From the NCBI GenBank assembly GCA_024276825.1, contig JAJRWI010000059.1, forward strand, positions 1-23,541: 23,541 nt of DNA, read 5' to 3'. The notes beneath the pieces were generated by a model that worked only from the letters and a program-made list of their open reading frames with translations, did not search any database and was not told the DNA's origin. Source of the DNA: an archaeon. Lineage in GTDB: Archaea; Asgardarchaeota; Thorarchaeia; Thorarchaeales; Thorarchaeaceae. Each line of letters begins with the position of its first letter. The stretch's first letter is position 1. Shown piece after piece: positions 8,520-20,769 of the stretch. A program made the translations under genes and the position numbers.

Positions 8520-9716
8520 CTATACGTTGGAAATAATCTGGTTAACCAGTATTAATCCCCGTTTGATATCATAATATCCCAAGGAAGAATCAGACTCCTT
8601 AGTGAGTGCACTTACAAGGAGTGTCAGTGACACAATCTGAGACACCAGACGGGGATGCTGCAGCAGAAACTCTTTGTTCCCCACTGATGTGATAATTAAT
8701 GACTCAATCCTACGACTAAGCAGACTGATTCGTTCATCAACCTCTGGTAGAAACTTGAGCATTTTGAAGATTTCTAGAACTCTTTGTTCATTAGCAAGTG
8801 AGCTGGGAGATATTCCAATACTGTTTAGTAGATCGATGGCCTTTGCGGTGAGCATCTCATAATACGTGCCATCCACATGTTCAATTCCCTCCTTAGCAGC
8901 CACAATTCTGACCAGAAATCGAATTGCATCGGTGAGCACATTTCTTGTTATTCTTGGATTTGATGGCAGTGTTTTAGATAGCATTTCACTGTTGTTAAGT
9001 TCAAGGTGTGCGGCAGTTGATGAGTTCAATTGGTGCTCAAACTCAGAAGATAGTATAACATCAGCAAGACAAGGAATAATAGAACTGGTACAGATCTGAC
9101 GGATTGCAGTCAGTGAACGAAAGTCTTCACGTGGTGTATAGAACAGAAGCACCCGAATAATGTCATAGGCCCTCTCAAAGTCCTCCTCATTGGTCACGTT
9201 TCGTCCCTGATTCTTACAGATAAATGCGCTTAGTAGGACCCAAGATGATGATATTGCGTCGGTGAGTTCGGAGTAATCGTTAGACTCTAGTATATCTTGA
9301 TCGTCTAGGAATCGGGAGAGGCGGTCCAACGACCCTGAGATTCTACTCAAGGTCAGACTCCCAATCTGCACTGAATTGAGGGATGAGAGAAAGTTCCGTG
9401 GATCATGAGATGAGGGACGAATGGTAATGTAAGGGTCTTTTCGTGTCAGGAGCCACCACTTTGTGGTTGAGGTGAAAATGTCAAGGAGGTCTATTGATGT
9501 TGTGAGATCTAAAACATCAACATGGCTCTTGTTGTCTAAATAGGCAAACAATTTTGCAAAAAGAGAGATGAATTTGTCGAGGAGTGTTGATAGAGGTTGA
9601 CCGTTAATCATCACCTTGGTGTATCTGCCGACTACAGACTCTACCTTTGATTTGACAATTGGATCCATGTTGGTATGAATGATCCCAAGGTAGACATCAA
9701 GAGTCTTTCTGGACAA
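8520..9716 (-). CDS. Hypothetical helical protein with ~4 internal ~100-aa repeats resembling AAA+ lid / histone-fold helices
   Basis: 398-aa ORF with TTG start and AGGAG SD. Internal repeat LTDAI at aa 151 and 261. Each unit ends in a motif like CKNQGRNVTNEEDFERAYDII. No Walker A/B motifs. Confidence 0.75.
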   Translation of the reverse strand: MSRKTLDVYLGIIHTNMDPIVKSKVESVVGRYTKVMINGQPLSTLLDKFISLFAKLFAYLDNKSHVDVLDLTTSIDLLDIFTSTTKWWLLTRKDPYITIRPSSHDPRNFLSSLNSVQIGSLTLSRISGSLDRLSRFLDDQDILESNDYSELTDAISSSWVLLSAFICKNQGRNVTNEEDFERAYDIIRVLLFYTPREDFRSLTAIRQICTSSIIPCLADVILSSEFEHQLNSSTAAHLELNNSEMLSKTLPSNPRITRNVLTDAIRFLVRIVAAKEGIEHVDGTYYEMLTAKAIDLLNSIGISPSSLANEQRVLEIFKMLKFLPEVDERISLLSRRIESLIITSVGNKEFLLQHPRLVSQIVSLTLLVSALTKESDSSLGYYDIKRGLILVNQIISNV

Positions 9717-9808: not shown

Positions 9809-10576
9809 TTATTTTCCGAATCGTCTTGATCTGCGTTCATACGACCTCAATGCTCTCCAAATGTCAATTCGCCTGACTGCAGGCCAGTATATCTGAGCAA
9901 AGTAGAGTTCGGAATATGCAGACTGCCATAAGAGAAAACCTGACAGGCGTTCCTCTCCAGATGTTCGAATTATCAGGTCTGGGTCTGGGATGCCATTTGT
10001 GTATAGATGTTGTTCAATCAGTTCTTCATCGATGTCATCAGGGTCGACCTGACCCCCCTTGATCTTCTCACCAATTGCGCGCACAGCGTCCACAAGTTCG
10101 GCACGACCAGAGTATCCTATGGCGACATTAAGGACATGATCAGAGTATTGTCTGGTTTCAATCTCAGCGGCACGAATTGCCTCTTGCACATCTTCAGGTA
10201 GAAGGTCCACTCGACCAATTGCATTGATTCTCACCTTGTGACGATGAACATCGGGATTGTTTACGACCTCCGAGAACTTTTCCTTTGCCAGTCTCATGAT
10301 TTCTTCTACTTCAGCATGGTCGCGTTGAAAATTCTCGATTGAGAATGCATAGAGCGTGCATACTTTAACACCAGCTTCCCATAGAACACGTAGGACTTCC
10401 ATGATCTTCTGAGCGCCCTTGCGATGCCCAAACCAAGGTGCATTAAGACCATGCTCACGTGCATAGCGACGGTTTCCATCAAGAACCAGTCCCACATGAC
10501 GAGGTGCCCGTTCCTTATTCAGCTGTCTGAACAGCCACCACTCATATAATCGATAAACTGGCCCTGAGAAATTCAA
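9809..10576 (-). CDS. uppS: cis-prenyltransferase (undecaprenyl/polyprenyl diphosphate synthase)
   Basis: PRHVGLVLDGNRRYA, TLYAFSIENFQR and PDPDLIIRTSGEERLSGFLLWQSAYSELYF, ending RRFGK. TTG start with GGTGA SD. Confidence 0.96.
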   Translation of the reverse strand: MNFSGPVYRLYEWWLFRQLNKERAPRHVGLVLDGNRRYAREHGLNAPWFGHRKGAQKIMEVLRVLWEAGVKVCTLYAFSIENFQRDHAEVEEIMRLAKEKFSEVVNNPDVHRHKVRINAIGRVDLLPEDVQEAIRAAEIETRQYSDHVLNVAIGYSGRAELVDAVRAIGEKIKGGQVDPDDIDEELIEQHLYTNGIPDPDLIIRTSGEERLSGFLLWQSAYSELYFAQIYWPAVRRIDIWRALRSYERRSRRFGK

Positions 10577-10651: not shown

Positions 10652-11023
10652 TCATATCATCTTTGCTATCTTCTCAGCAGCACGTTTCATATCAAGGAAT
10701 ATAAGTCCAAGTTTTGCATTTGCAGTGGTTGAAACAGTTAGACATGCATTCATGCCCGCCTGGACCACAAGCAGCCAGCCGTCTTCCCCCTTAACATTCA
10801 CCTGTTCTAGAGTTCCCTTTCCGAGTTCAATTGCCGCCTTTTCCCCAAGTGTCAACATTGCAGCTGTCATGGCTGCGACTTTGGCCTCATCAACATCATT
10901 TGGAAGAGCTGACACGATTGGGAGGCCTTCCACACTGACAATTGCACATGCCTCAATCTCGGGTATACTACCTTGTAGTTCTTTCAAAACTCCTTCTAGT
11001 GTGTCTCCACGTGTTTCGGTCAT
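10652..11023 (-). CDS. Roadblock/LC7 domain protein (MglB-like), directly downstream of mglA
   Basis: IEACAIVSVEGLPIVS, AAMTAAMLTLGEKAAIELGKGTLEQVNVKG and LGLIFLDMKR. AGGTGAGG SD 10 nt after the mglA stop region. Confidence 0.92.
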   Translation of the reverse strand: MTETRGDTLEGVLKELQGSIPEIEACAIVSVEGLPIVSALPNDVDEAKVAAMTAAMLTLGEKAAIELGKGTLEQVNVKGEDGWLLVVQAGMNACLTVSTTANAKLGLIFLDMKRAAEKIAKMI

Positions 11024-11033
11024 CAGGCCTCAC

Positions 11034-11603
11034 CTATTTATACATCCTTCTAAGAATTACCTCTCTAGCTATAGCTTGAAATGCCCTCTTAACTCCTACG
11101 CCTTGTATAGCAATTGTTTCATATATCGGAACATTCTCTCCAAGGCCTAAGAGATCCAACATTTCTTGACGTGACATTCTGTTTGGAAGATCGCGTTTGT
11201 TCAACATCACCACAATTGGAATCTCGCGTCCCAATGCGTCTCCAAGGAAGAGCTTGAGTTCCTCAAAACTCTCAACATTCTCTTCTCTCTGATCAGGAGA
11301 TGAGTCAGCAACAAAGAGAATACCATCCGTACCTTGCAACACCACTTTTCTCTGGTGCCTGTGCCTTTTCTGACCTGCTACTGTGAACACATCAAAAAGA
11401 ACCCTACCTCCAGCACTCATGGGCACATAGTCAAAGAACAGCGTTCGGTTAGTTTCATCTTCGATTGATGTAAACTCGCCTTTCTGGAGTCCCTCTACAC
11501 GGCCATACAACCAACGCAGGGCAGTGGTCTTACCGCCCAGTGAGGGGCCATAGAATACCAGTTTCAGATGGATTCTGCCCTTGTCATCTTTTCTCATATA
11601 CAA
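11034..11603 (-). CDS. mglA: MglA-family small GTPase
   Basis: KLVFYGPSLGGKTT (G1), RTLFFD (MglA-specific G2 with catalytic Arg), TVAGQ (MglA G3 lacking Asp), GILFVADS, NKRDL (G4). Start is TTG 11603 or ATG 11597. Confidence 0.9.
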   Translation of the reverse strand: MYMRKDDKGRIHLKLVFYGPSLGGKTTALRWLYGRVEGLQKGEFTSIEDETNRTLFFDYVPMSAGGRVLFDVFTVAGQKRHRHQRKVVLQGTDGILFVADSSPDQREENVESFEELKLFLGDALGREIPIVVMLNKRDLPNRMSRQEMLDLLGLGENVPIYETIAIQGVGVKRAFQAIAREVILRRMYK

Positions 11604-11835
11604 CTATCACCTTTATAGAGTTCGAAGTGGATTTGGAATATGCTGAGCATCTTTTCATTAGAGATGTTGTGCATTCATGTTGCACCTCGATGAGTCGCTG
11701 CAGTTGCAGATCAGCAATGGCCCGAGTTTGGAGAGTGTCATCGGGATTTAAGTGTTTTAGGATTACACTCTCATAAAAGCCTTTGTGGCACAATTACCAA
11801 GGAGTTAACTCTATTTAAGATTATAATATAAACAA

Positions 11836-12518
11836 ATGGTTACCAGAATTGGGCAAGAAAAACCAATTAACACATTAGTGTGGATGGACATAAAATTGGA
11901 ACGACTTGAAAACAACCCAATAATCATAGTTGTTGTAGGGGAGGGTGATGTTGGAAAGAGCACTCTGATAAAATATCTCATCAGTGAAACATATGAACCT
12001 CATAAGATTACGATGGGAGTTGGTTTCGAGTTTCATAAGATGGAGATCAATGGTGAAGAGGTAGAATTTGCAATAAAGGATGCAGGTGCCTAGAAGAGGC
12101 TTAGATTCATGTTGCCCATGTGGACGAAAGGCGCCAAAGGGACTCTATTGGCCTTTGACTTGGGGAGATTCCATACATTCATGCATCTAGGTGATTGGTT
12201 AAAGATCTTAAGTGGATGTGTTAGCCCGAACAGGGTGTTGTTGATGGGCGCGAACGTAGACATTGGCGACGCAAGGGAGATTGACAGAGAAGAGGCAGAG
12301 AGATTTGCTAGAGAGAATGGACTGTTGGGGTTTCGCATAGATGCGTAGAGGTTGGACACCAATCAAAAGAACATCTAAGAGATCCACTATGAAATTGTGA
12401 GAAGTTTAAATGGTCTCATCGGAAACAATGGTCTGAAATGTGCCTACTGCCGTTCGTGGGCGGACAGGACTATTATGTCCAAGATTGTCCAATTTGTCCA
12501 ATTTACAATGAATGGTGA
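11836..12518 (+). pseudogene. Disrupted Ras/Rab-like small GTPase (in-frame TAG 12091, TAG 12346, TAA 12376; possible frameshifted C-terminal CxxC pair)
   Basis: One frame carries G1 VVVGEGDVGKST, G2 ITMGVGF, G3 KDAGA*KRLR, LLAFDL, degenerate G4 GANVD, REIDREEAERFARENGL and G5-like IDA*. The ORFs 11836..12093 and 12109..12348 are in the same frame. Confidence 0.75.
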
Positions 12519-12588
12519 TGCCTGCTTGGTTCAAAAAATTAATCGAGAAGCCTGAATCTCAATAGGTCAATATAATGGTGTGCCTTTC

Positions 12589-12617
12589 AAAATAGGGGAG
12601 GGGCGCTATTTTCCCCT
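12589..12617 (-). terminator. Possible hairpin/T-tract terminator after the roadblock pair
   Basis: AGGGGA...TCCCCT inverted repeat (12594-12599 / 12612-12617), followed on the minus strand by ATTTTG immediately after the stop codon. Confidence 0.35.
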
Positions 12618-13081
12618 CAGACTCTTTCCAGCTCCTCAAGGGCAGACTTTAGATCTTCCTCATCCAACTCGTCCTTTGAAGGAGCAAGTGGTTCAACTGC
12701 GAGGAATTTGTCCAGCTCTTCAGCCAACTGTACACCCTGTTTCTTCATCACAAGACGAATTAGACCAATGTTGACCTCAGCTTCAGTCACAACACATAAG
12801 ACTCCTTTGCCACAAGCAGATGCAAATATTTTGCCCTCTGAAAACTCTGAGGTGACAATCTCTAACTCCCCTATTTGCAGGTTTTTGCCTTGTTCCTCAC
12901 TGGCACAAAAGACAGCACTGGCTATCGCACCGATTGAATCCGTGTCTACAGCGTAATAGGACAACTTTGACACATTGGCGATTGTCAGGCCAGTCTTATC
13001 AACCAGTATGACTTTCTTCACACCCTTGTCTTGGCGTATGATATCTGTCAGGATTCTATCAAAGACTTTGGGATCGCTCAT
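12617..13081 (-). CDS. Roadblock/LC7 domain protein with acidic C-terminal helical extension
   Basis: GVKKVILVDKTGLTIA, IGAIASAVFCASEEQGKNLQIGELEIVTSEFSEGKIF and NIGLIRLVMKK. Tail PSKDELDEEDLKSALEELERV. AGGAG SD. Confidence 0.88.
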   Translation of the reverse strand: MSDPKVFDRILTDIIRQDKGVKKVILVDKTGLTIANVSKLSYYAVDTDSIGAIASAVFCASEEQGKNLQIGELEIVTSEFSEGKIFASACGKGVLCVVTEAEVNIGLIRLVMKKQGVQLAEELDKFLAVEPLAPSKDELDEEDLKSALEELERV

Positions 13082-13093
13082 AAAGCAACACTC

Positions 13094-13411
13094 CTAACTA
13101 CTCTTCAGGACTACTAGTATTAGATCCTCCTTTGGTGACGGTGCGATATTGATCTGGCCCTTTGTTGTGTCAAGGGTCAGGAATGATAAAGTCCCCTCTT
13201 TTAACTCTTCCACAGCATCAATGGCTTTGCCAACGAGGGAGGTTATTATTGCAGCAACATTCTCTGTGGTTTCGGGATCAAGGTCGCTGCTCAGTGGAAG
13301 CCCTTCCATGTTGGTGATTACTACACCACGGACTCCCTCCTGTGCCTTGAGTTTGGCAATTATTGTTTGGATTCTATCTTGGCTGTTCAAGCTTGGGGGT
13401 CTCCAATGCAT
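13094..13411 (-). CDS. Roadblock/LC7 domain protein (short, dynein light chain roadblock-like)
   Basis: LKAQEGVRGVVITNMEGLPLSSDLD...LSFLTLDTTKGQINIAP...LILVVL. Start uncertain (ATG 13411 or TTG 13390 after GGAG). Confidence 0.88.
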   Translation of the reverse strand: MHWRPPSLNSQDRIQTIIAKLKAQEGVRGVVITNMEGLPLSSDLDPETTENVAAIITSLVGKAIDAVEELKEGTLSFLTLDTTKGQINIAPSPKEDLILVVLKSS

Positions 13412-13587
13412 TTGATTTATGCACACACACTTCTTACCGCACGTGAAGGTATTTTAGACTTGTGGATATGCATTATGTGTTCTATGGTAAATTTGCGCAT
13501 TTCTAATGTTGTATTACATTTTTTGACGTATAACACTTTTGCATACCATTTGATTTCTTGATGACCAGATATGGTTTACAACAATAA

Positions 13588-15204
13588 TCATTCATCATCC
13601 TCATCATCAAACATCTGCTTTGACGTCTTCCGCATTCGTCGAATCTGTTCGGTGAAGAACATATCAGCAGCCCCAGATGATGAGCCCGCTGCTTTCATTT
13701 GTTGACTTGCAGTTTCCATTAATTGAATCTCATCATCAATAGCCATCTGAGCGCGGTCCAGTTCTTTACGTACTGGCGAGGGAGCAGACTTCGCCCTTCT
13801 CTTGAATGATTCCTTTAGGGCCTTCATTCTGCTCATACCTTTTTCTTCCCTTCCACTGAAAGCATCCTCACCAGCCTTTTGTGTGACAAATGTGGTACAG
13901 ACCGTGGGGTCTAATGATTCCATGATCTCATCCTCAGCTTGTGCGACTTTCATCTTTTCAGTGACAACGCGAAGCCTTCTGTTGCCCTCAAAGTCAGTAT
14001 ACTCAATCTGGACCTGAATTGGCACTTCAGATGAATCAATCTCAGTTTCGGGTTCGACTTCAAGATGTATCTCCTGATCTCTTCTAATGGTACCGAGCTG
14101 CCCCTTCATGGATGTCTGGAGTTGACTTACTACTGATGCAGAAACACCTGATGCATCAACAACTCTTATTCCAGGGGGTGTTATCAATCGAACAGTCACA
14201 TCGCGACCAAGAAGTTGAGCACCTGCAATTTCGGACAGACTCTCATCAAGTTCATTAGGGGTCACATAGTACATCTGCCCACCAGTGGCTTCGGGCATTA
14301 ATCCAAGCGTCCTTAGTTCCATTCCTGAACCAGAGGCAATCCCGACAACATCAAAGATAGTACTGTTACCCTTGAACATTTCACCAAGTTCTTGATAGAA
14401 TTGCCTTGCTGGAGGCACTTGGAACCCTTCAAGAGAACCAATTCCAATATTTGCAAGACCATCAGTCAATAGGACAACACGTTCAACCGACTTGAGTTTT
14501 GCAATTGTGAGCGCCATTACTACTGCAGGACCAAGGGCAGTCCCACCGCCAGCAGCAAAACCCTGAATTGTATCTTTAATTTTCGACCTATTAGGACCAA
14601 TGGGAACCAGTCCAATATCATCGAGCAACTGTTTTGTGGTAGTTTCAATCTTTTCACGACTTTGAAATACATCTTCGGATAGATCAACATAATTGCCAGT
14701 GATCATGTTGATAGCATATACTTGACTTGAGAATGCAATTAGTCCAAACAATGTGTCAGGGGAATTCTCTGCAAGACTCTCAACAGTTCCAATAAGGCTG
14801 CGTTTCACTGCTGCCAAATTTGCACCTGACATTGAGCCAGAAACATCAATCAGGGCAAGAAGGGCATTTCCACCAATGACGGCCACTCCAGTTGATTCAT
14901 CAGTGGTTTCTGGGACGTGAAGCACAACATCACTATCAGCGTCTGCAAGAATTATTTCGCCTTCGATAACATTTAGTGTTCCACAAAACTTGCATACGAA
15001 ATGCTTTCCAATTTTGGGATCGTCTTTAATCAACTCTGCCTCTTGAAGAAATGCATTACATTTGAAACATGCAATTGGCTTGCCAGTTATGACTGCACCT
15101 GTGGACTCCAGCTCACTAAACTCCACACGGAGTACAAAGGGGATGTCACCCAATACCTTCTTTGATTTGGGAAAGGCCTTAGATGTGCTTTTTATTATAG
15201 GCAT
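13588..15204 (-). CDS. Sec23/Sec24-like protein (Zn finger + vWA trunk + beta-sandwich + C-terminal helical region)
   Basis: Zn finger KPIACFKCNAF...FVCKFCGTLN; vWA LIDVSGSM, GGTALGPAV, LLTDGLANIGIGSL, EATGGQMYY; beta-sandwich DVTVRLITPPGIRV...IQVQIEYTDFEGNRRLRVVT. Confidence 0.85.
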   Translation of the reverse strand: MPIIKSTSKAFPKSKKVLGDIPFVLRVEFSELESTGAVITGKPIACFKCNAFLQEAELIKDDPKIGKHFVCKFCGTLNVIEGEIILADADSDVVLHVPETTDESTGVAVIGGNALLALIDVSGSMSGANLAAVKRSLIGTVESLAENSPDTLFGLIAFSSQVYAINMITGNYVDLSEDVFQSREKIETTTKQLLDDIGLVPIGPNRSKIKDTIQGFAAGGGTALGPAVVMALTIAKLKSVERVVLLTDGLANIGIGSLEGFQVPPARQFYQELGEMFKGNSTIFDVVGIASGSGMELRTLGLMPEATGGQMYYVTPNELDESLSEIAGAQLLGRDVTVRLITPPGIRVVDASGVSASVVSQLQTSMKGQLGTIRRDQEIHLEVEPETEIDSSEVPIQVQIEYTDFEGNRRLRVVTEKMKVAQAEDEIMESLDPTVCTTFVTQKAGEDAFSGREEKGMSRMKALKESFKRRAKSAPSPVRKELDRAQMAIDDEIQLMETASQQMKAAGSSSGAADMFFTEQIRRMRKTSKQMFDDEDDE

Positions 15205-15376
15205 GTTTGATCACTCATGAGTTGGATTACAAGACATTAGGAACAGTTGAGTATTTGAGTTTCACTTGTCTAAATACAGAAGAGTGATTTATTACTAATG
15301 ATGTCGGAGAAGATTTAAGCAGTATAGACATTCAATGGACAATGGTTCAATAAGAACCTCATGGAGGAAATAACTG

Positions 15377-15742
15377 ATGGTTGACAAGGCCAAGATAGAG
15401 AAAGTGGTAGCCGAAACAATGGCCGCTAACGTGGACATTCAAGGAATTATTGTATGTGATGCAAAGGCAAATGTGATGTTTGCCCATACAATAACTGCTG
15501 ATGTTGATCACTCAGAGATTGCAGACCTCGCAGTAAAAATCGCTGCCAATTCAGCCCTTCTATCTACAAAACTTGACAAGGGCCAATTAAATGAGATTAG
15601 CATTGCCTCCGAGAAAGGGTTCATCTTGATTCTGGGGGATGTGAAGCTGGTTCTGGCGGGAATTGCGGGAGAGGGAGCTCGTGAGTCGCTAGGTCTGTTG
15701 CACATCGCTCTGAAACGAGCACTTCGCGCCATGGTTTCCTAG
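15377..15742 (+). CDS. Roadblock/LC7 (profilin-like fold) protein
   Basis: IQGIIVCDAKANVM, LDKGQLNEISIASEKGFILI and LGLLHIALKRA. GGAGG SD; TTTAAG box at 15314. Confidence 0.8.
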   Translation: MVDKAKIEKVVAETMAANVDIQGIIVCDAKANVMFAHTITADVDHSEIADLAVKIAANSALLSTKLDKGQLNEISIASEKGFILILGDVKLVLAGIAGEGARESLGLLHIALKRALRAMVS

Positions 15743-15923: not shown

Positions 15924-18900
15924 TTGGTATATATTGAGAAGCTTGTATGCAAGGGCTTCAAGTCATTCGGCCGAGACACTGTCACAATTAGACTCAACCC
16001 AGGATTCACCTGTATTGTTGGACCCAATGGGTCTGGAAAGTCTAATGTGGTTGATGCTATTGTCTTTGTACTGGGACAGCTTAGTGCTAAAACATTACGC
16101 GCCAATGTCTTTTCGGATCTATTGTATTCGCCCCCGAAGCCAAACATGCCACCAAAAGCAAAGTCTGCAGCGGTGGAATTGCATTTCAACAACAAAGACA
16201 GAAAGCTTCCAATTAATTCCGATAAAGTTGTGATAATGAGAGAACTGGACGAATCAGGGAGATCAGTATGTAGGATTAATGGAAAGGTTGTATCTAGAAA
16301 CCAAGTGATTGACATATTAGGGCATATTGGTGTTGATCCGAATGGGTACAATCTGGTACTGCAGGGAGAGATTGCGAAGCTTGTTTCAGTGAGTCCTATT
16401 GAGAGAAGAAAACTGATTGAGGAAATAGCAGGTATTTCCGCATACGATGAGCAAAAGGAACGGGCTCTGAAAAAACTTGCAGAGAGTGAGGCAAACCTCG
16501 GCAAGGTCGAAACTCAGCTTCAGGAGAGAAGAAGACAGCTTGAAAAACTGGCTGCAGAGAGAGAAGAAGCCATAAGATACAATCAAATTCAAGATCAGAT
16601 TCAGAAGATTCGAATTGATAGCTTGGCATGGAATATTGTGAAAGCAAAGAAGAGAATTCAGGCGATTGATAAGACCCTGATTGAGAGGGCCCAAGAAGCA
16701 GAGGGGCTAATTCGCAGAATGGAAGAAATTGACAGGGAGATACTGGATACAGAGGCAGAGATTGAGGACATTGACGCAGAAGTAGACCGCATAGCAGGTG
16801 CAGACTCAAAGAGGGTTTCGGAACAATATGGTCTGATAAAAGCAGAGAGAGACCATATTCTTTCCAATCTGGAGAGGGACAAGGAGGCCTTTCAAAGGGT
16901 ATGGGATGAGCGAGAGCAGATTGAGAGAGAACTGTCTAAGCTGCGTGAAGAGATGGAGGAGAAGGAGAGGGAGAAGGATGAGAAGTCATTAAAGCTCGAA
17001 AAACTCGATTTTGAGATACGGGCATGTTCTGATGACATCAGTAGATTAGAGAGAAGACTTGAGAATGAACAGAGTTCTATCATGGACTCCACCGTAAGGC
17101 TTCAGGATCTCAATAAGCAGATGATGGCACTGGATGAAGGCGTCGCTGAGATAAGATCTGCAATCAAGTCAGACAGAAGAGAACTGGGACTGTTATACGA
17201 GGAAACCGAGGATGCAAGGCAGTCCTTACAGCAGGCTCAAGAGATTATCGATGACTTGAATGCCAAGATTCCAGAGAGGAAAAGTGTCCTTAAAGAAATG
17301 GAGGAACTGGAGCAGTCCAAGAGAAAAGAGATGTATGAGGTGGATGAGAAACTAAAGACGATTGATGCAGAGGTCAGAGAAACCGCCAAGGTGATTCAGT
17401 CCACGAGGGAAGAACTTGTCAGATTTGAGGCTCGAAGAGAGGCACTGCGCGATGCAGAGGAGTCATTCTTGAAGAAGCGGAAGGCTATTGCAAGAGTGCT
17501 TGAACTAAGAGATTCAGGAGAGATTACAGGAATTCATGGTACTGTGGCAGAGTTGGGGTCCATTCATCCAGAATATTCCGTGGCTATGGAGATTGCGGCA
17601 GGAAACAGGCTGTCGCATATTGTTGTTGATGATGAAAATGTTGCTACTGAATGTATTAATGTTTTGAAGCGTGAGAGAGTTGGACGGGCATCATTCATTC
17701 CACTCACGAAGATCAAGAGCCGTTCACCCAAGGGCCATATTGATGATGAGGGGGTTATTGGTTATGCAATAGATCTTGTGAGCTTCGACCCCAAGCTTAG
17801 ACCTGCATTCGAGTTTGTGTTCTCTGATACTGTGGTGACCAGTGATTTTGAAACCGCAAAAAGGCTTGGGTTCTCTGGCAGGCGAGCGGTTTCATTAGAA
17901 GGTGATCTTGTTGAGAGGTCAGGACTTGTCACAGGAGGACATTATCACAAGACATCAACAGGGCTATCACTTCAAGTCAAGGACAAGACTCCCGAGATAG
18001 AGGAGAAATTGGCAGGACTTGATAGAATCCTACAGGGTCTGAAAGACCAGCAAGATGAGTTAAGAAAGAGAAGAAAGGTGCTTGATAGAGAGATACAGGA
18101 CCTTTCAAAGAAGATCTATAGGGCCAAGCTTGAGATTGAACGTATGGAGGATACTCTCACCGAAAACAAGAGCAGGGCTGAAGCCCTGAAGAAAAAGATA
18201 GAGAGCAATAATGTATTGATTCAAGGTCTTGAACAGCAGATTGCAGAATTGGAGGAGAGGGACAAAGAGATCACAGCACATCGTGAAACTATTAGAGCTC
18301 AAAGGGACGAGTGTAATGAGGCATTGGCAAAGTCTGATGTTCATGCATTGAATCAGGAGATTAAAGACCTGAAGGAGGTCATTGAGAGTTATCAGTCTGA
18401 AAGGAACGAACTCCAGACCAGAATCAATGAACTGCAGGTCGCAATAGAGCAGAGAATTCTGCCGAAGATAGAGGATTTGGAGAGTAGACTTGTCAGTCTA
18501 AATAAGTCCATCCCCACATTGCAAGAGAGAGTCGAAGCTGCAGAGAGCAGACTTGCAGAGCATGAGAGAAGATTTTCTGAACTTCAAGCAGAAAGGGAAC
18601 GGATTGATAATGCGGTCAAGGACAAACGAGTCCGCCAACTCAGGCTCAAGGAAGACCTTAGAAATCTACGACTGGAGCAGGAAGAGATTCGTGAGAAGCA
18701 GGGGATCAATGAGCGAGCAGTATACAGGCTCAACTCAGAGCGTGGACGTCTAGAGAATGATATTGTTGGTTATACAGCAGAACTTGATGAGATAACGGAT
18801 GCACAGGAGGAAGTTGCCAAGAGAGAAACCCTGCAGGAACTAACACGAAAAGAGATTGATGACATGGGCGACAAGATTCTCGAGTATCAGAGAGAACTCG

Positions 18901-19514
18901 AGGCACTGGGACCCGTCAATCTGAAGGCAATTCAAGAGTATGACTTGGAGAATGAGAAATACGAGGAGATAGTTGATAAAAAGCGACGACTTGAAGAGGA
19001 ACATAAAGAGATCCTTGAATTCATGGAGGAGATTGAAGCAGAGAAGACTCGCAAGTTCCTGCAGGTCTATAATGAGATTGCAGACAACTTCTCCAAGGTG
19101 TTTGCCAAGCTCTCTCCTGGAGGGGAGGCAAGTCTGATGCTTGAGAATCCAGAGCATCCATTGATGGGAGGAATCATAATTCGGTCGAAGCCAAGTGGAA
19201 AGGATCTTGTTACACTTGGTGCCATGAGTGGTGGAGAGAAAACTCTGACTGGTCTTGCATTGATCTTTGCCATCCAGATGCACAGCCCATCAAGTTTCTA
19301 TCTGTTTGATGAGATAGATGCTGCACTTGATGATGTCAATGCCCATAATGTAGCATTGTTGATTAAGGAGATGGCAAAGTCATCTCAGTTCATTGTGGTT
19401 TCGCTTAGAGACACCACTGCGAACAAGGCGGATCTCTTGATTGGCGTATCAAATCAAGATGGCATCTCCCGTATTGTGCCTGTTGATCTTCAGGAGGTGG
19501 CAGTCCCATCATGA
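15924..19514 (+). CDS. smc: Chromosome segregation protein SMC
   Basis: GFKSFG, Walker A GPNGSGKSN, Q-loop VLQGEI, hinge GIHGTVAEL...GRASFIPL...GLVTGG, long coiled coils, LGPVNLKAI, signature MSGGEK and Walker B FYLFDEIDAALD. Confidence 0.97.
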   Translation: MVYIEKLVCKGFKSFGRDTVTIRLNPGFTCIVGPNGSGKSNVVDAIVFVLGQLSAKTLRANVFSDLLYSPPKPNMPPKAKSAAVELHFNNKDRKLPINSDKVVIMRELDESGRSVCRINGKVVSRNQVIDILGHIGVDPNGYNLVLQGEIAKLVSVSPIERRKLIEEIAGISAYDEQKERALKKLAESEANLGKVETQLQERRRQLEKLAAEREEAIRYNQIQDQIQKIRIDSLAWNIVKAKKRIQAIDKTLIERAQEAEGLIRRMEEIDREILDTEAEIEDIDAEVDRIAGADSKRVSEQYGLIKAERDHILSNLERDKEAFQRVWDEREQIERELSKLREEMEEKEREKDEKSLKLEKLDFEIRACSDDISRLERRLENEQSSIMDSTVRLQDLNKQMMALDEGVAEIRSAIKSDRRELGLLYEETEDARQSLQQAQEIIDDLNAKIPERKSVLKEMEELEQSKRKEMYEVDEKLKTIDAEVRETAKVIQSTREELVRFEARREALRDAEESFLKKRKAIARVLELRDSGEITGIHGTVAELGSIHPEYSVAMEIAAGNRLSHIVVDDENVATECINVLKRERVGRASFIPLTKIKSRSPKGHIDDEGVIGYAIDLVSFDPKLRPAFEFVFSDTVVTSDFETAKRLGFSGRRAVSLEGDLVERSGLVTGGHYHKTSTGLSLQVKDKTPEIEEKLAGLDRILQGLKDQQDELRKRRKVLDREIQDLSKKIYRAKLEIERMEDTLTENKSRAEALKKKIESNNVLIQGLEQQIAELEERDKEITAHRETIRAQRDECNEALAKSDVHALNQEIKDLKEVIESYQSERNELQTRINELQVAIEQRILPKIEDLESRLVSLNKSIPTLQERVEAAESRLAEHERRFSELQAERERIDNAVKDKRVRQLRLKEDLRNLRLEQEEIREKQGINERAVYRLNSERGRLENDIVGYTAELDEITDAQEEVAKRETLQELTRKEIDDMGDKILEYQRELEALGPVNLKAIQEYDLENEKYEEIVDKKRRLEEEHKEILEFMEEIEAEKTRKFLQVYNEIADNFSKVFAKLSPGGEASLMLENPEHPLMGGIIIRSKPSGKDLVTLGAMSGGEKTLTGLALIFAIQMHSPSSFYLFDEIDAALDDVNAHNVALLIKEMAKSSQFIVVSLRDTTANKADLLIGVSNQDGISRIVPVDLQEVAVPS

Positions 19515-20224
19515 GTCAAGATGATTTGCCATTCTGGGCTGCACCCCCATTCATATTGTTGACTGATGTCCTTCAGCTCGATAAGGTCGACCCCTGGAAA
19601 GTTGATGTTGGTAAACTGGTGGGGAGCTTCTTAGAAGAGATGAGAAGAGGGGGCGATATTGATTTCAGGGTTTCGGGCAATGCCCTGTATTCAGCCTCTG
19701 TGATATTCATGAGAAAGACGAGGGAACTTGTTAAATTGGGGCTTCTGCCACCAGAGGAGGAAGAAGAGGAGGAAATTCTGGAGATCCCATTGATTCGGCC
19801 CCCATTCCGTCTGACCAATCAACGTGTGACAATAGAGGAACTCCTTGTTGCAATGGACAGGGTTCTTAGCAAAGGCGTAAGGCGACGGAGACCTCCTACC
19901 AAGCGTAGGACCAGGGTCAAGGCGGACCCAATCTCTTTCACAATAGATATTGCAAGGGCGAATATCGAGGATAGCATCGCACGGGTATATGGAGACCTGT
20001 GTGAGATTATGGGGGTTGGCGAAAAAGTCAACTTCATGGACATCCTTGTCAATAATACGAGAGCTGAAGTTGTTAGGATATTCATGGCTTTGCTTCATCT
20101 GTTTGCAAGGGCATATATCGACCTTTGGGTTGATGAGGACGGAGAAATCTGGATTCTGATGATGGAGCCACCCAGAGATGAGGAAACACCGGAAGTAAAA
20201 ACTCCCACTCAGGTGATTGAATGA
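19511..20224 (+). CDS. scpA: Segregation/condensation protein A (kleisin)
   Basis: VDPWKVDV, DFRVSGNALYSASVIFMRKT, RVTIEELLVAM and C-terminal winged helix VVRIFMALLHL. ATGA overlap with smc. Confidence 0.88.
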   Translation: MSQDDLPFWAAPPFILLTDVLQLDKVDPWKVDVGKLVGSFLEEMRRGGDIDFRVSGNALYSASVIFMRKTRELVKLGLLPPEEEEEEEILEIPLIRPPFRLTNQRVTIEELLVAMDRVLSKGVRRRRPPTKRRTRVKADPISFTIDIARANIEDSIARVYGDLCEIMGVGEKVNFMDILVNNTRAEVVRIFMALLHLFARAYIDLWVDEDGEIWILMMEPPRDEETPEVKTPTQVIE

Positions 20225-20769
20225 ATGAGGATATGATCACCTTAGAGGCCGCACTCTATGTATCGGGGCGACCAATGACCATAGAGGAATTATCCGAGTT
20301 AATCGGAAAGGCGCATTCAAGCACAAAAAGACTTCTGGATGACCTTGCTTATGATTACAAGAAGCGGGGTGGGGCGCTCGAGATAGTCGAATTACCCAGA
20401 GAGCGATATGTGCTTCAGTTAATCCCTGAACTCACTCCAAGGGTGGCAAAGTTCATTCCCGGCGGACTTCTGTCATATGCCACATTGCAGACACTAGTAT
20501 TCATTGCTCTGAAACAGCCAATACTGCAGTCTGAACTGGTGGCCCAGAGAGGAACTCACTGCTATGATCATGTGCACGAGCTTATTGAGAAGAAATTTGT
20601 TGAAGCCACACCTGAAGGACGAAGCAAGATATTGAAAACTACACCACTGTTTGCAGACTATTTTGGTCTTGATCAAGACGTTGTCAAGATGAAGGCACAA
20701 TTGAAGTTTAAGATGAAGAAGATGCTAGAGAAGCAGGCGGCTGAAGAAGGAATTGACACTTCTCATTAG
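20221..20769 (+). CDS. scpB: Segregation/condensation protein B (kite)
   Basis: LEAALYVSGRP, LSYATLQTLVFIALKQPI...RG and TTPLFADYFGL. ATGA overlap with scpA. Confidence 0.93.
   Translation: MNEDMITLEAALYVSGRPMTIEELSELIGKAHSSTKRLLDDLAYDYKKRGGALEIVELPRERYVLQLIPELTPRVAKFIPGGLLSYATLQTLVFIALKQPILQSELVAQRGTHCYDHVHELIEKKFVEATPEGRSKILKTTPLFADYFGLDQDVVKMKAQLKFKMKKMLEKQAAEEGIDTSH

Follow-up and report, generated by a model that had tools for sequence, protein, structure and literature searches.

The analysed window, a 23,541-nucleotide stretch of contig JAJRWI010000059.1 from a Thorarchaeaceae genome of 2.94 Mb that is 98% complete, carries within about 5 kb the genes for an MglA-family small GTPase, four roadblock proteins (termed Rb1, Rb2, Rb3 and P2) and a Sec23/24-like protein. 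A preliminary description of this DNA had listed six gene features, all of which were recovered in place by Pfam, profile and structure searches. The core features and their surroundings are as follows, with positions counted from the first letter of the window.

10652-11023, minus strand: Rb1, a roadblock/LC7 protein of 123 amino acids in the position of an MglB partner (Pfam Robl_LC7, E 1e-16)
11034-11603, minus strand: MglA-family small GTPase (solved MglA structures, E 6e-39)
12617-13081, minus strand: Rb2, a long roadblock protein of 154 amino acids (Robl_LC7, 6.8e-11)
13094-13390, minus strand: Rb3, a short LC7-type roadblock protein of 98 amino acids, the open reading frame (ORF) being open to a GTG at 13426 (Robl_LC7, 2.3e-15)
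13588-15204, minus strand: Sec23/24-like protein of 538 amino acids (Pfam Sec23_BS 8.6e-9, Sec23_trunk 3.2e-6, VWA_2 1.3e-8)
15377-15742, plus strand: P2, a divergent fourth roadblock protein of 121 amino acids, transcribed away from the Sec23/24-like gene (match to a solved Roadblock/LC7 protein, 4.6e-7)
11836 to about 12325, plus strand: remnant of a Ras/Rab-like GTPase pseudogene (Pfam Ras, 1.2e-7 for its first ORF, 11836-12093)
12326-12520, plus strand: interspersed repeat of about 195 bp resembling a miniature inverted-repeat transposable element (MITE), which abuts and truncates the Ras-like remnant
13450-13500, minus strand: promoter-like region of Rb3-Rb2, with a TATA-like CACAAGTCTAAAATA at 13450-13464 and an upstream ATGCGCAAA at 13492-13500
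9809-10576, minus strand: UPPS (cis-prenyltransferase), flanking the conserved block (Pfam Prenyltransf, 2e-77)
15924-20769, plus strand: SMC, ScpA and ScpB, flanking the conserved block after P2 (Pfam)
8520-9716, minus strand: protein of 398 amino acids without a Pfam match, downstream of UPPS

Along the minus strand from 15204 to 8520, the genes follow one another in the order Sec23/24-like, Rb3, Rb2, MglA, Rb1, UPPS and the 398-residue protein, with the plus-strand Ras-like remnant placed between MglA and Rb2. A stretch of 5.1 kb contains P2 and three of the 13 roadblock domains that Pfam detects in the genome, against an expectation of about 0.02; the roadblock genes are hence clustered far beyond chance.

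The closest solved relatives of the GTPase are the MglA proteins of Myxococcus xanthus and Thermus thermophilus, with Arf matching at 3e-12. Its ORF begins at a TTG (11603), and orthologues begin at the position of ATG 11597, which yields a protein of 187 amino acids. The P-loop GPSLGGKT and the G4 motif NKRD align to M. xanthus MglA and are invariant in 20 orthologues. Switch I (ETNRTLFFDY) aligns without gaps to its bacterial counterpart (ETDRTLFFDF), placing Arg53, for which a role has been described in MglA (PMC3199381, PMC10933270), at the identical residue number. In the G3 motif, FTVAGQ aligns with YTVPGQ of M. xanthus (T74-VAG-Q78) and a threonine replaces the G3 aspartate; Thr78 has been reported as a hallmark of the MglA family (PMC3000849). 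MglA has both an arginine finger of its own and the Thr-for-Asp G3 motif of its family. Across a survey base of 400 Asgard genomes, an MglA orthologue was detected in 287, with 57-68% identity outside the order and including families that have no Sec23/24-like gene. Most Thorarchaeaceae genomes, including the source genome, give two MglA matches with E <1e-45, the second being a close paralogue elsewhere in the genome.

Three of the roadblock proteins score well above the curated Robl_LC7 cut-off of 23 bits (Rb1 60.8, Rb2 42.2 and Rb3 56.5 bits). P2 lies below it (15.6 bits, E 0.013) and is still matched by the solved Roadblock/LC7 protein listed above. Rb1 aligns with solved archaeal roadblock proteins at 1.3e-24. 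Rb2 bears a conserved acidic carboxy-terminal helix, also matches the Pfam family MAPKK1_Int (LAMTOR3; 1.1e-7), and its profile aligns with M. xanthus MglB at 1e-5 over residues 11-146, the extension included; by sequence, it is the cluster member nearest to bacterial MglB. For Rb3 we place the start at TTG 13390, since its orthologues begin TTG-ATA-AGT-CAA. It also matches LAMTOR5 (1.5e-6), and its profile aligns with a solved archaeal roadblock protein at 1.8e-36 and with the eukaryotic dynein light chain roadblock at 2e-20. The match to the latter (DYNLRB1/2) is far better than those to MglB or the LAMTORs, and Rb3 may be the closest archaeal relative of the dynein light chain roadblock. 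Further neighbourhoods of roadblock and small-GTPase genes exist in the same genome, namely a roadblock gene beside two Ras-like genes (C41:1580-4280), a 320-residue roadblock protein near a 213-residue GTPase (C28:67910-70306) and a tandem-roadblock ORF (C63:10223-32493).

The gene set shares several traits with the MglA-MglB switch of M. xanthus and T. thermophilus, which includes the accessory roadblock MglC: the GTPase belongs to the same family and has Arg53, TxxGQ and NKRD, a roadblock gene (Rb1) lies 10 bp downstream of MglA, and Rb2 matches MglB including the carboxy-terminal extension. It differs in having four different roadblock paralogues where the bacterial system has one or two, in its archaeal host, for which neither gliding nor a type IV pilus polarity system is known, and in being embedded between UPPS and SMC-ScpAB, and any GTPase-activating or nucleotide-exchange activity would here be putative. 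Similarly, the encoding of several different roadblock subunits together with a small GTPase recalls Ragulator-Rag with its heterodimer platform of LAMTOR2/3 and LAMTOR4/5, as does the combination of a long type (Rb2, with its LAMTOR3-family match) and a short type that lacks the final helix (Rb3, with its LAMTOR5 match). Unlike Ragulator-Rag, the Thorarchaeaceae cluster contains neither a LAMTOR1-like wrapping subunit nor a Rag-type fusion of GTPase and roadblock, its GTPase is of the MglA type, and the putative roadblock heterodimers are deduced solely from gene pairing.

To delineate the cluster we combined the survey of the 400 genomes with about 20 kb of sequence fetched around the Sec23/24-like gene in 60 genomes and with 20 further MglA-centred loci from 15 families. 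The block UPPS-Rb1-MglA-Rb2-Rb3/P2, often followed by SMC-ScpA-ScpB, was present in families f2, f6, f14 (Hermod), f16 (Frey/Jord) and f33, and partial MglA-roadblock clusters in f4, f7-f12 and f15, none of them with the Sec23/24-like gene. Complete or partial, the block without this gene recurs in at least 10 Asgard families. P2 orthologues adjoin Rb3 divergently in f2, f6, f14, f16 and f33 as well as in the Thorarchaeaceae genome G315. On the flanks, UPPS adjoins Rb1 in f2, f4, f6, f14 and f33 and lies a few kb further away in the same block in f7 and f16, and SMC, ScpA and ScpB come after P2 in f2, f14, f16 and G315. In Hermodarchaeota G100 the order Rb1, MglA, Rb2, Rb3/P2 is intact and the Sec23/24-like gene is on another contig; in the 20 MglA-centred loci no match to this gene was found near MglA. 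MglA and the four roadblock proteins form a deeply conserved cluster, and their homologues bind one another: bacterial MglA and MglB bind and regulate each other (PMC3199381). A model of an MglA-MglB complex from Thorarchaeota has also been published (PMC13408092). The complete order of UPPS, Rb1, MglA, Rb2, Rb3, P2, SMC, ScpA and ScpB spans several Asgard classes, an unusually deep synteny for archaea.

Within Thorarchaeaceae, the order Sec23/24-like, Rb3, Rb2, MglA, Rb1, UPPS was retained in 20 of the 21 sampled loci. Conservation is equally high across these loci over the entire 20 kb, which runs from a radical-SAM gene to one resembling AIR synthase, so that the family-level pattern says little. 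The 398-residue protein encoded at the end of this order was present in Thorarchaeaceae only, among the sampled loci. The spacing between genes is uneven. Rb3 and Rb2 are separated by 1-26 bp (12 bp in the window) and MglA and Rb1 by 2-20 bp in 16 of the 19 measured Thorarchaeaceae loci (10 bp in the window); the Sec23/24-like gene and Rb3 are 130-216 bp apart in most loci, and the spacer between Rb2 and MglA usually measures 141-675 bp with a maximum of 3925 bp. Elsewhere this last spacer holds a CLC channel, an arrestin-like or a zinc-ribbon gene, all unrelated. In the Thorarchaeaceae genome G333 the inserted gene is arrestin/Vps26-like (L041:6801-7790, plus strand; Arrestin_N 2.5e-20), and in G320, of the same genus, it encodes a CLC chloride channel (L031:5807-7609).

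In the window, the same spacer contains the Ras-like remnant. Its read-through frame scores 79.8 bits against Pfam Ras, with an in-frame TAG (12091-12093) at the position of the switch-II glutamine and a degenerate G4 motif. It is absent from this spacer in 20 other Thorarchaeaceae loci, its paralogues in the same genome share 26-31% identity only, and it is a pseudogene restricted to the source genome. The presence of such a remnant had been correctly noted in the preliminary description; its boundaries needed revision, as it ends at about 12325 at the start of the 195-bp repeat and the TAG at 12091-12093 is the only stop inside GTPase coding sequence. Three nonsense codons at conserved GTPase positions were accordingly rejected, the second TAG and the TAA falling in the repeat. 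Recoding of TAG as pyrrolysine was likewise rejected, because the G4 motif is degenerate, the repeat has replaced the 3′ end and a search of the 98%-complete genome found no PylS. The repeat itself has 40 matches across the contigs of the source genome, with 71-94% identity and sharp shared ends; other sampled Thorarchaeota hold only pieces of 30-65 bp, and the expansion is seen in the source genome only. Its predicted RNA fold is weak (z about -1.7 on both strands), and it matched no Rfam family; the Rfam scan of the whole window likewise matched 0 families. We read the Ras-like remnant as an inactivated gene that a MITE-like repeat has cut off, in a spacer prone to insertions.

The region upstream of Rb3 contains two conserved motifs. 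The TATA-like CACAAGTCTAAAATA, about 60-75 nucleotides before the TTG start of Rb3, is common to 14 Thorarchaeaceae loci, and the window has a single copy of it, with an expectation of 0; ATGCGCAAA lies about 30 nucleotides further upstream, its position being kept in the same number of loci. In G315, where no Sec23/24-like gene lies upstream, the same two motifs stand at the same spacing. As these motifs are kept with or without this gene upstream, Rb3-Rb2 appear to own a promoter, its function being deduced from motif and position, that is older than or independent of the Sec23/24-like gene. The palindrome-like motif ATGCGCAAA / TTGCGCAA (13492-13500, minus strand, and 14 related loci) is present in duplicate in L046 and L047; it may serve as a binding site for a regulator.

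The Sec23/24-like protein was modelled with a mean predicted local distance difference test score (pLDDT) of 88.9. The model comprises amino-terminal strands, a CxxC...CxxC zinc finger, a von Willebrand factor A (vWA) trunk, a β-sandwich and a carboxy-terminal helical domain, in this order. Foldseek matched it to Sec24/Sec23 at E of about 1e-30 with a template modelling (TM) score of about 0.7 over about 590 columns, and the family profile aligned with yeast Sec24 at 1.2e-20, residues 43-473 corresponding to Sec24 96-556. Among 45 sequences from 10 Asgard families, the zinc-finger residues C46, C49, C71 and C74 are invariant, as is a complete metal ion-dependent adhesion site (MIDAS) of the form DxSxS...T...D (D120, S122, S124, T222 and D248). 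On the strength of profile and model, we assign the protein as a true Sec24/23 homologue with a predicted intact metal-binding MIDAS site. No gelsolin-like domain was found in it, the model ending in helices 433-532 with nothing beyond, and it therefore has no counterpart of the Sec23 arginine finger; Asgard Sec23-like proteins have already been published as missing this domain (PMC11914678). The gene was detected in 152 of the 400 Asgard genomes, including 78 of 85 Thorarchaeaceae as well as members of other families, the latter with 27-38% identity. It is single copy in the source genome, where no Sec23-Sec24 paralogue pair was found, and most Asgard genomes show one match.

Compared with the Sec23/Sec24-Sar1 assembly of coat protein complex II (COPII), the zinc finger, trunk, β-sandwich and helical domains follow in the same order. 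The archaeal protein differs from it by the missing gelsolin domain, by its single copy in place of a Sec23/Sec24 pair, and by the complete MIDAS, the last aspartate of which is lacking from yeast Sec24 in the alignment; around its gene no Sar1, Sec13 or Sec31 context was seen, and a link to a GTPase would be hypothetical. A second relative is ArnA-ArnB, the archaellum regulators of Sulfolobus (PDB 8s05; Foldseek E 1.5e-15), which combine a core of vWA, β-sandwich and helical domains with a zinc finger and were likened by their authors to the Sec23/24 core (PMC12852372). In ArnAB, however, the zinc finger resides on a separate FHA protein, whereas the Sec23/24-like protein has all elements in one chain, and ArnAB is regulated by phosphorylation, whereas no FHA or kinase genes adjoin the Sec23/24-like gene.

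The history of its site was decided by two genomes. G311, from the sister family f2, has the full window-like block with Rb3 and P2 142 bp apart and the Sec23/24-like gene on a different contig. G315, a member of Thorarchaeaceae, has an intact block with no Sec23/24-like gene in the site, the gene again lying on a different contig, where no roadblock or GTPase genes were found near it. Because its congeners G312-G314 keep the gene between Rb3 and P2, it most likely left this site in G315. The position between Rb3 and P2 was seen in Thorarchaeaceae only, and given its absence from the site in f2 and G315, the adjacency originated in a single family, where it can also disappear. UPPS and SMC-ScpAB are equally conserved neighbours, and the adjacency of the Sec23/24-like gene is therefore block synteny here.

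Taken together, the locus is probably an ancient Asgard switch of MglA plus four roadblock proteins, in which a Sec24-like gene, transcribed separately, is a lodger confined to one lineage. If bacterial MglA-MglB and Ragulator are taken as a guide, the roadblock proteins would form dimers serving as platforms for the binding of MglA and for control of its nucleotide state or its location; the tight gene pairs MglA-Rb1 and Rb3-Rb2, and the adjacency of Rb3 and P2 wherever the Sec23/24-like gene is absent, suggest the pairings. The Sec23/24-like gene, as a separate transcription unit, would have come into the divergent Rb3/P2 spacer in the Thorarchaeaceae lineage. We found nothing here that ties its product to the MglA-roadblock switch. 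A four-chain complex prediction of MglA, Rb3, Rb2 and the Sec23/24-like protein, in which only the last chain was scored, gave 0.00 and bears on binding neither way. The co-location had initially been taken to indicate one system of MglA, roadblock proteins and Sec23/24-like protein. MglA and the four roadblock proteins stand as a real conserved cluster; membership of the Sec23/24-like protein is unsupported by synteny, given the clusters without its gene, the promoter-like element of Rb3-Rb2 and the unrelated genes in the Rb2-MglA spacer. In the families sampled outside Thorarchaeaceae the gene is unlinked to the MglA-roadblock cluster, but three other lineages show it beside different small GTPases or a roadblock gene.

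Several observations weigh against regarding the Sec23/24-like gene as a mere lodger. Roadblock genes lie on both sides of it, and it adjoins Rb3-Rb2 in 20 of the 21 loci sampled from Thorarchaeaceae, among them L046 and L048, in which the upstream P2-SMC side is rearranged. In the Loki genus g70 a Ras-family GTPase gene lies two genes upstream of it on the same strand (9 loci), in the Loki genus g64 an MglA/Arf-like GTPase gene lies 126 bp upstream on the same strand, and in family f19 a roadblock gene lies 210 bp upstream, also on the same strand. At a background density of 1.2-2.2 Ras-like and roadblock genes per 100 kb in these genomes, about 0.7-1.4 such neighbours would be expected among about 20 independent contexts and 4 were seen, counting Thorarchaeaceae, a post hoc comparison; the modest excess above chance is only suggestive. 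These points favour functional coupling in Thorarchaeaceae, in which GTP-bound MglA or a roadblock heterodimer would recruit the Sec24-like protein as its effector or scaffold, an analogue of Sar1-Sec23/24 whose gene order is fixed by joint function. MglA with its own arginine finger could still have an effector without the gelsolin arginine, and, speculatively, the acidic carboxy-terminal helix of Rb2 and the invariant MIDAS could in principle meet. We nevertheless consider such coupling unlikely: the cluster is complete and conserved without the Sec23/24-like gene in G315 and in every other family sampled, the sister family included; a promoter-like motif belongs to Rb3-Rb2 themselves; the equal conservation of UPPS and SMC-ScpAB renders the adjacency unspecific; and the Sec-adjacent GTPases of Loki are not MglA orthologues (a Ras-family member in one case, a paralogue of 33% identity in the other). 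Most contexts outside Thorarchaeaceae, in Hermod and Frey families and in f21, f23, f30 and f2, have no nearby GTPase or roadblock gene.

At the other extreme, MglA and the four roadblock proteins might share no function and merely be neighbours, together with UPPS and SMC-ScpAB, in a region that rearranges slowly. Unrelated housekeeping genes do remain in position within this block in different Asgard classes, and Tran et al. (PMC10933270) report for the Loki strain MK-D1 that genes for small GTPases do not, as a rule, share operons with roadblock genes. Pure block synteny of this kind is nonetheless highly improbable in view of the gaps of 1-26 bp for MglA-Rb1 and Rb3-Rb2 in most genomes, the mutual binding and regulation of the homologous bacterial MglA-MglB pairs (PMC3199381), and the concentration of four of the approximately 14 roadblock genes of the genome within 5 kb. 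Selective constraint points the same way, as MglA (90-96% identity) and Rb2 (83-93%) are far more constrained within Thorarchaeaceae than the Sec23/24-like protein (about 55%).

The Loki neighbourhoods provided some further observations. In nine g70 genomes (L071-L074, L080-L082, L086, L088) the order is methyltransferase, NurA, Rce1-like CAAX protease, Ras-family GTPase, AhpC-like and Sec24-like gene. The GTPase has a switch II of DFGGEE without glutamine; a CAAX-box reading of it, as a neighbour of the Rce1-like protease, was rejected, none of the nine carboxy termini containing a cysteine. The AhpC/TSA-family gene between GTPase and Sec24-like gene (L071:8295-8834, plus strand) has an in-frame TGA at the redox motif W-U-S-H-C, and reading through it improves the Pfam match from 2.6e-12 to 2.9e-22; this gene likely encodes a selenoprotein peroxiredoxin. 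In G161 (g64), we rejected the GTPase beside the Sec24-like gene as an MglA orthologue, since it is one of eight paralogues and 33% identical; its strong hidden Markov model score arose because its sequence was in the training set.

Published work already covers Asgard Sec23/24-like, MglA and roadblock proteins singly (PMC11914678, PMC10933270, PMC13408092), much as the preliminary description had said of Thorarchaeal Sec23/24 homologues and Asgard roadblock/GTPase expansions. A limited literature search found no published description of the conserved five-gene MglA/roadblock cluster, which is apparently undescribed. In previous work, three Asgard Sec23-like proteins co-precipitated with Asgard Arf, weakly and insensitively to nucleotide state (PMC11914678). 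Candidate GTPase partners of the Sec24-like protein would be the Thorarchaeal MglA, the Ras-like GTPase of Loki g70 and the MglA/Arf-like GTPase of Loki g64. An extended proposal, that the Sec24-like protein is a GTPase-controlled Asgard scaffold recruited by the MglA-roadblock switch in Thorarchaeaceae and by neighbouring Ras-like or MglA/Arf-like GTPases in Lokiarchaeia, strikes us as very unlikely; under it, the arginine finger carried by MglA itself would make the lack of a gelsolin domain unimportant. If true, such a scaffold would be the nearest prokaryotic counterpart of the Sar1-Sec23/24 pre-budding complex.

The question of vesicle-coat origins would be directly affected if an ancestor of Sec23/24 were linked to a small GTPase in Asgard archaea. 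Gene position alone cannot carry the claim of a primitive coat, and the GTPase-roadblock cluster is older and more widespread than the adjacency of the Sec23/24-like gene and independent of it. The five-gene MglA/roadblock switch, found across Asgard classes, offers a clean biochemical target for the diversification of roadblock platforms before Ragulator and the dynein light chains.

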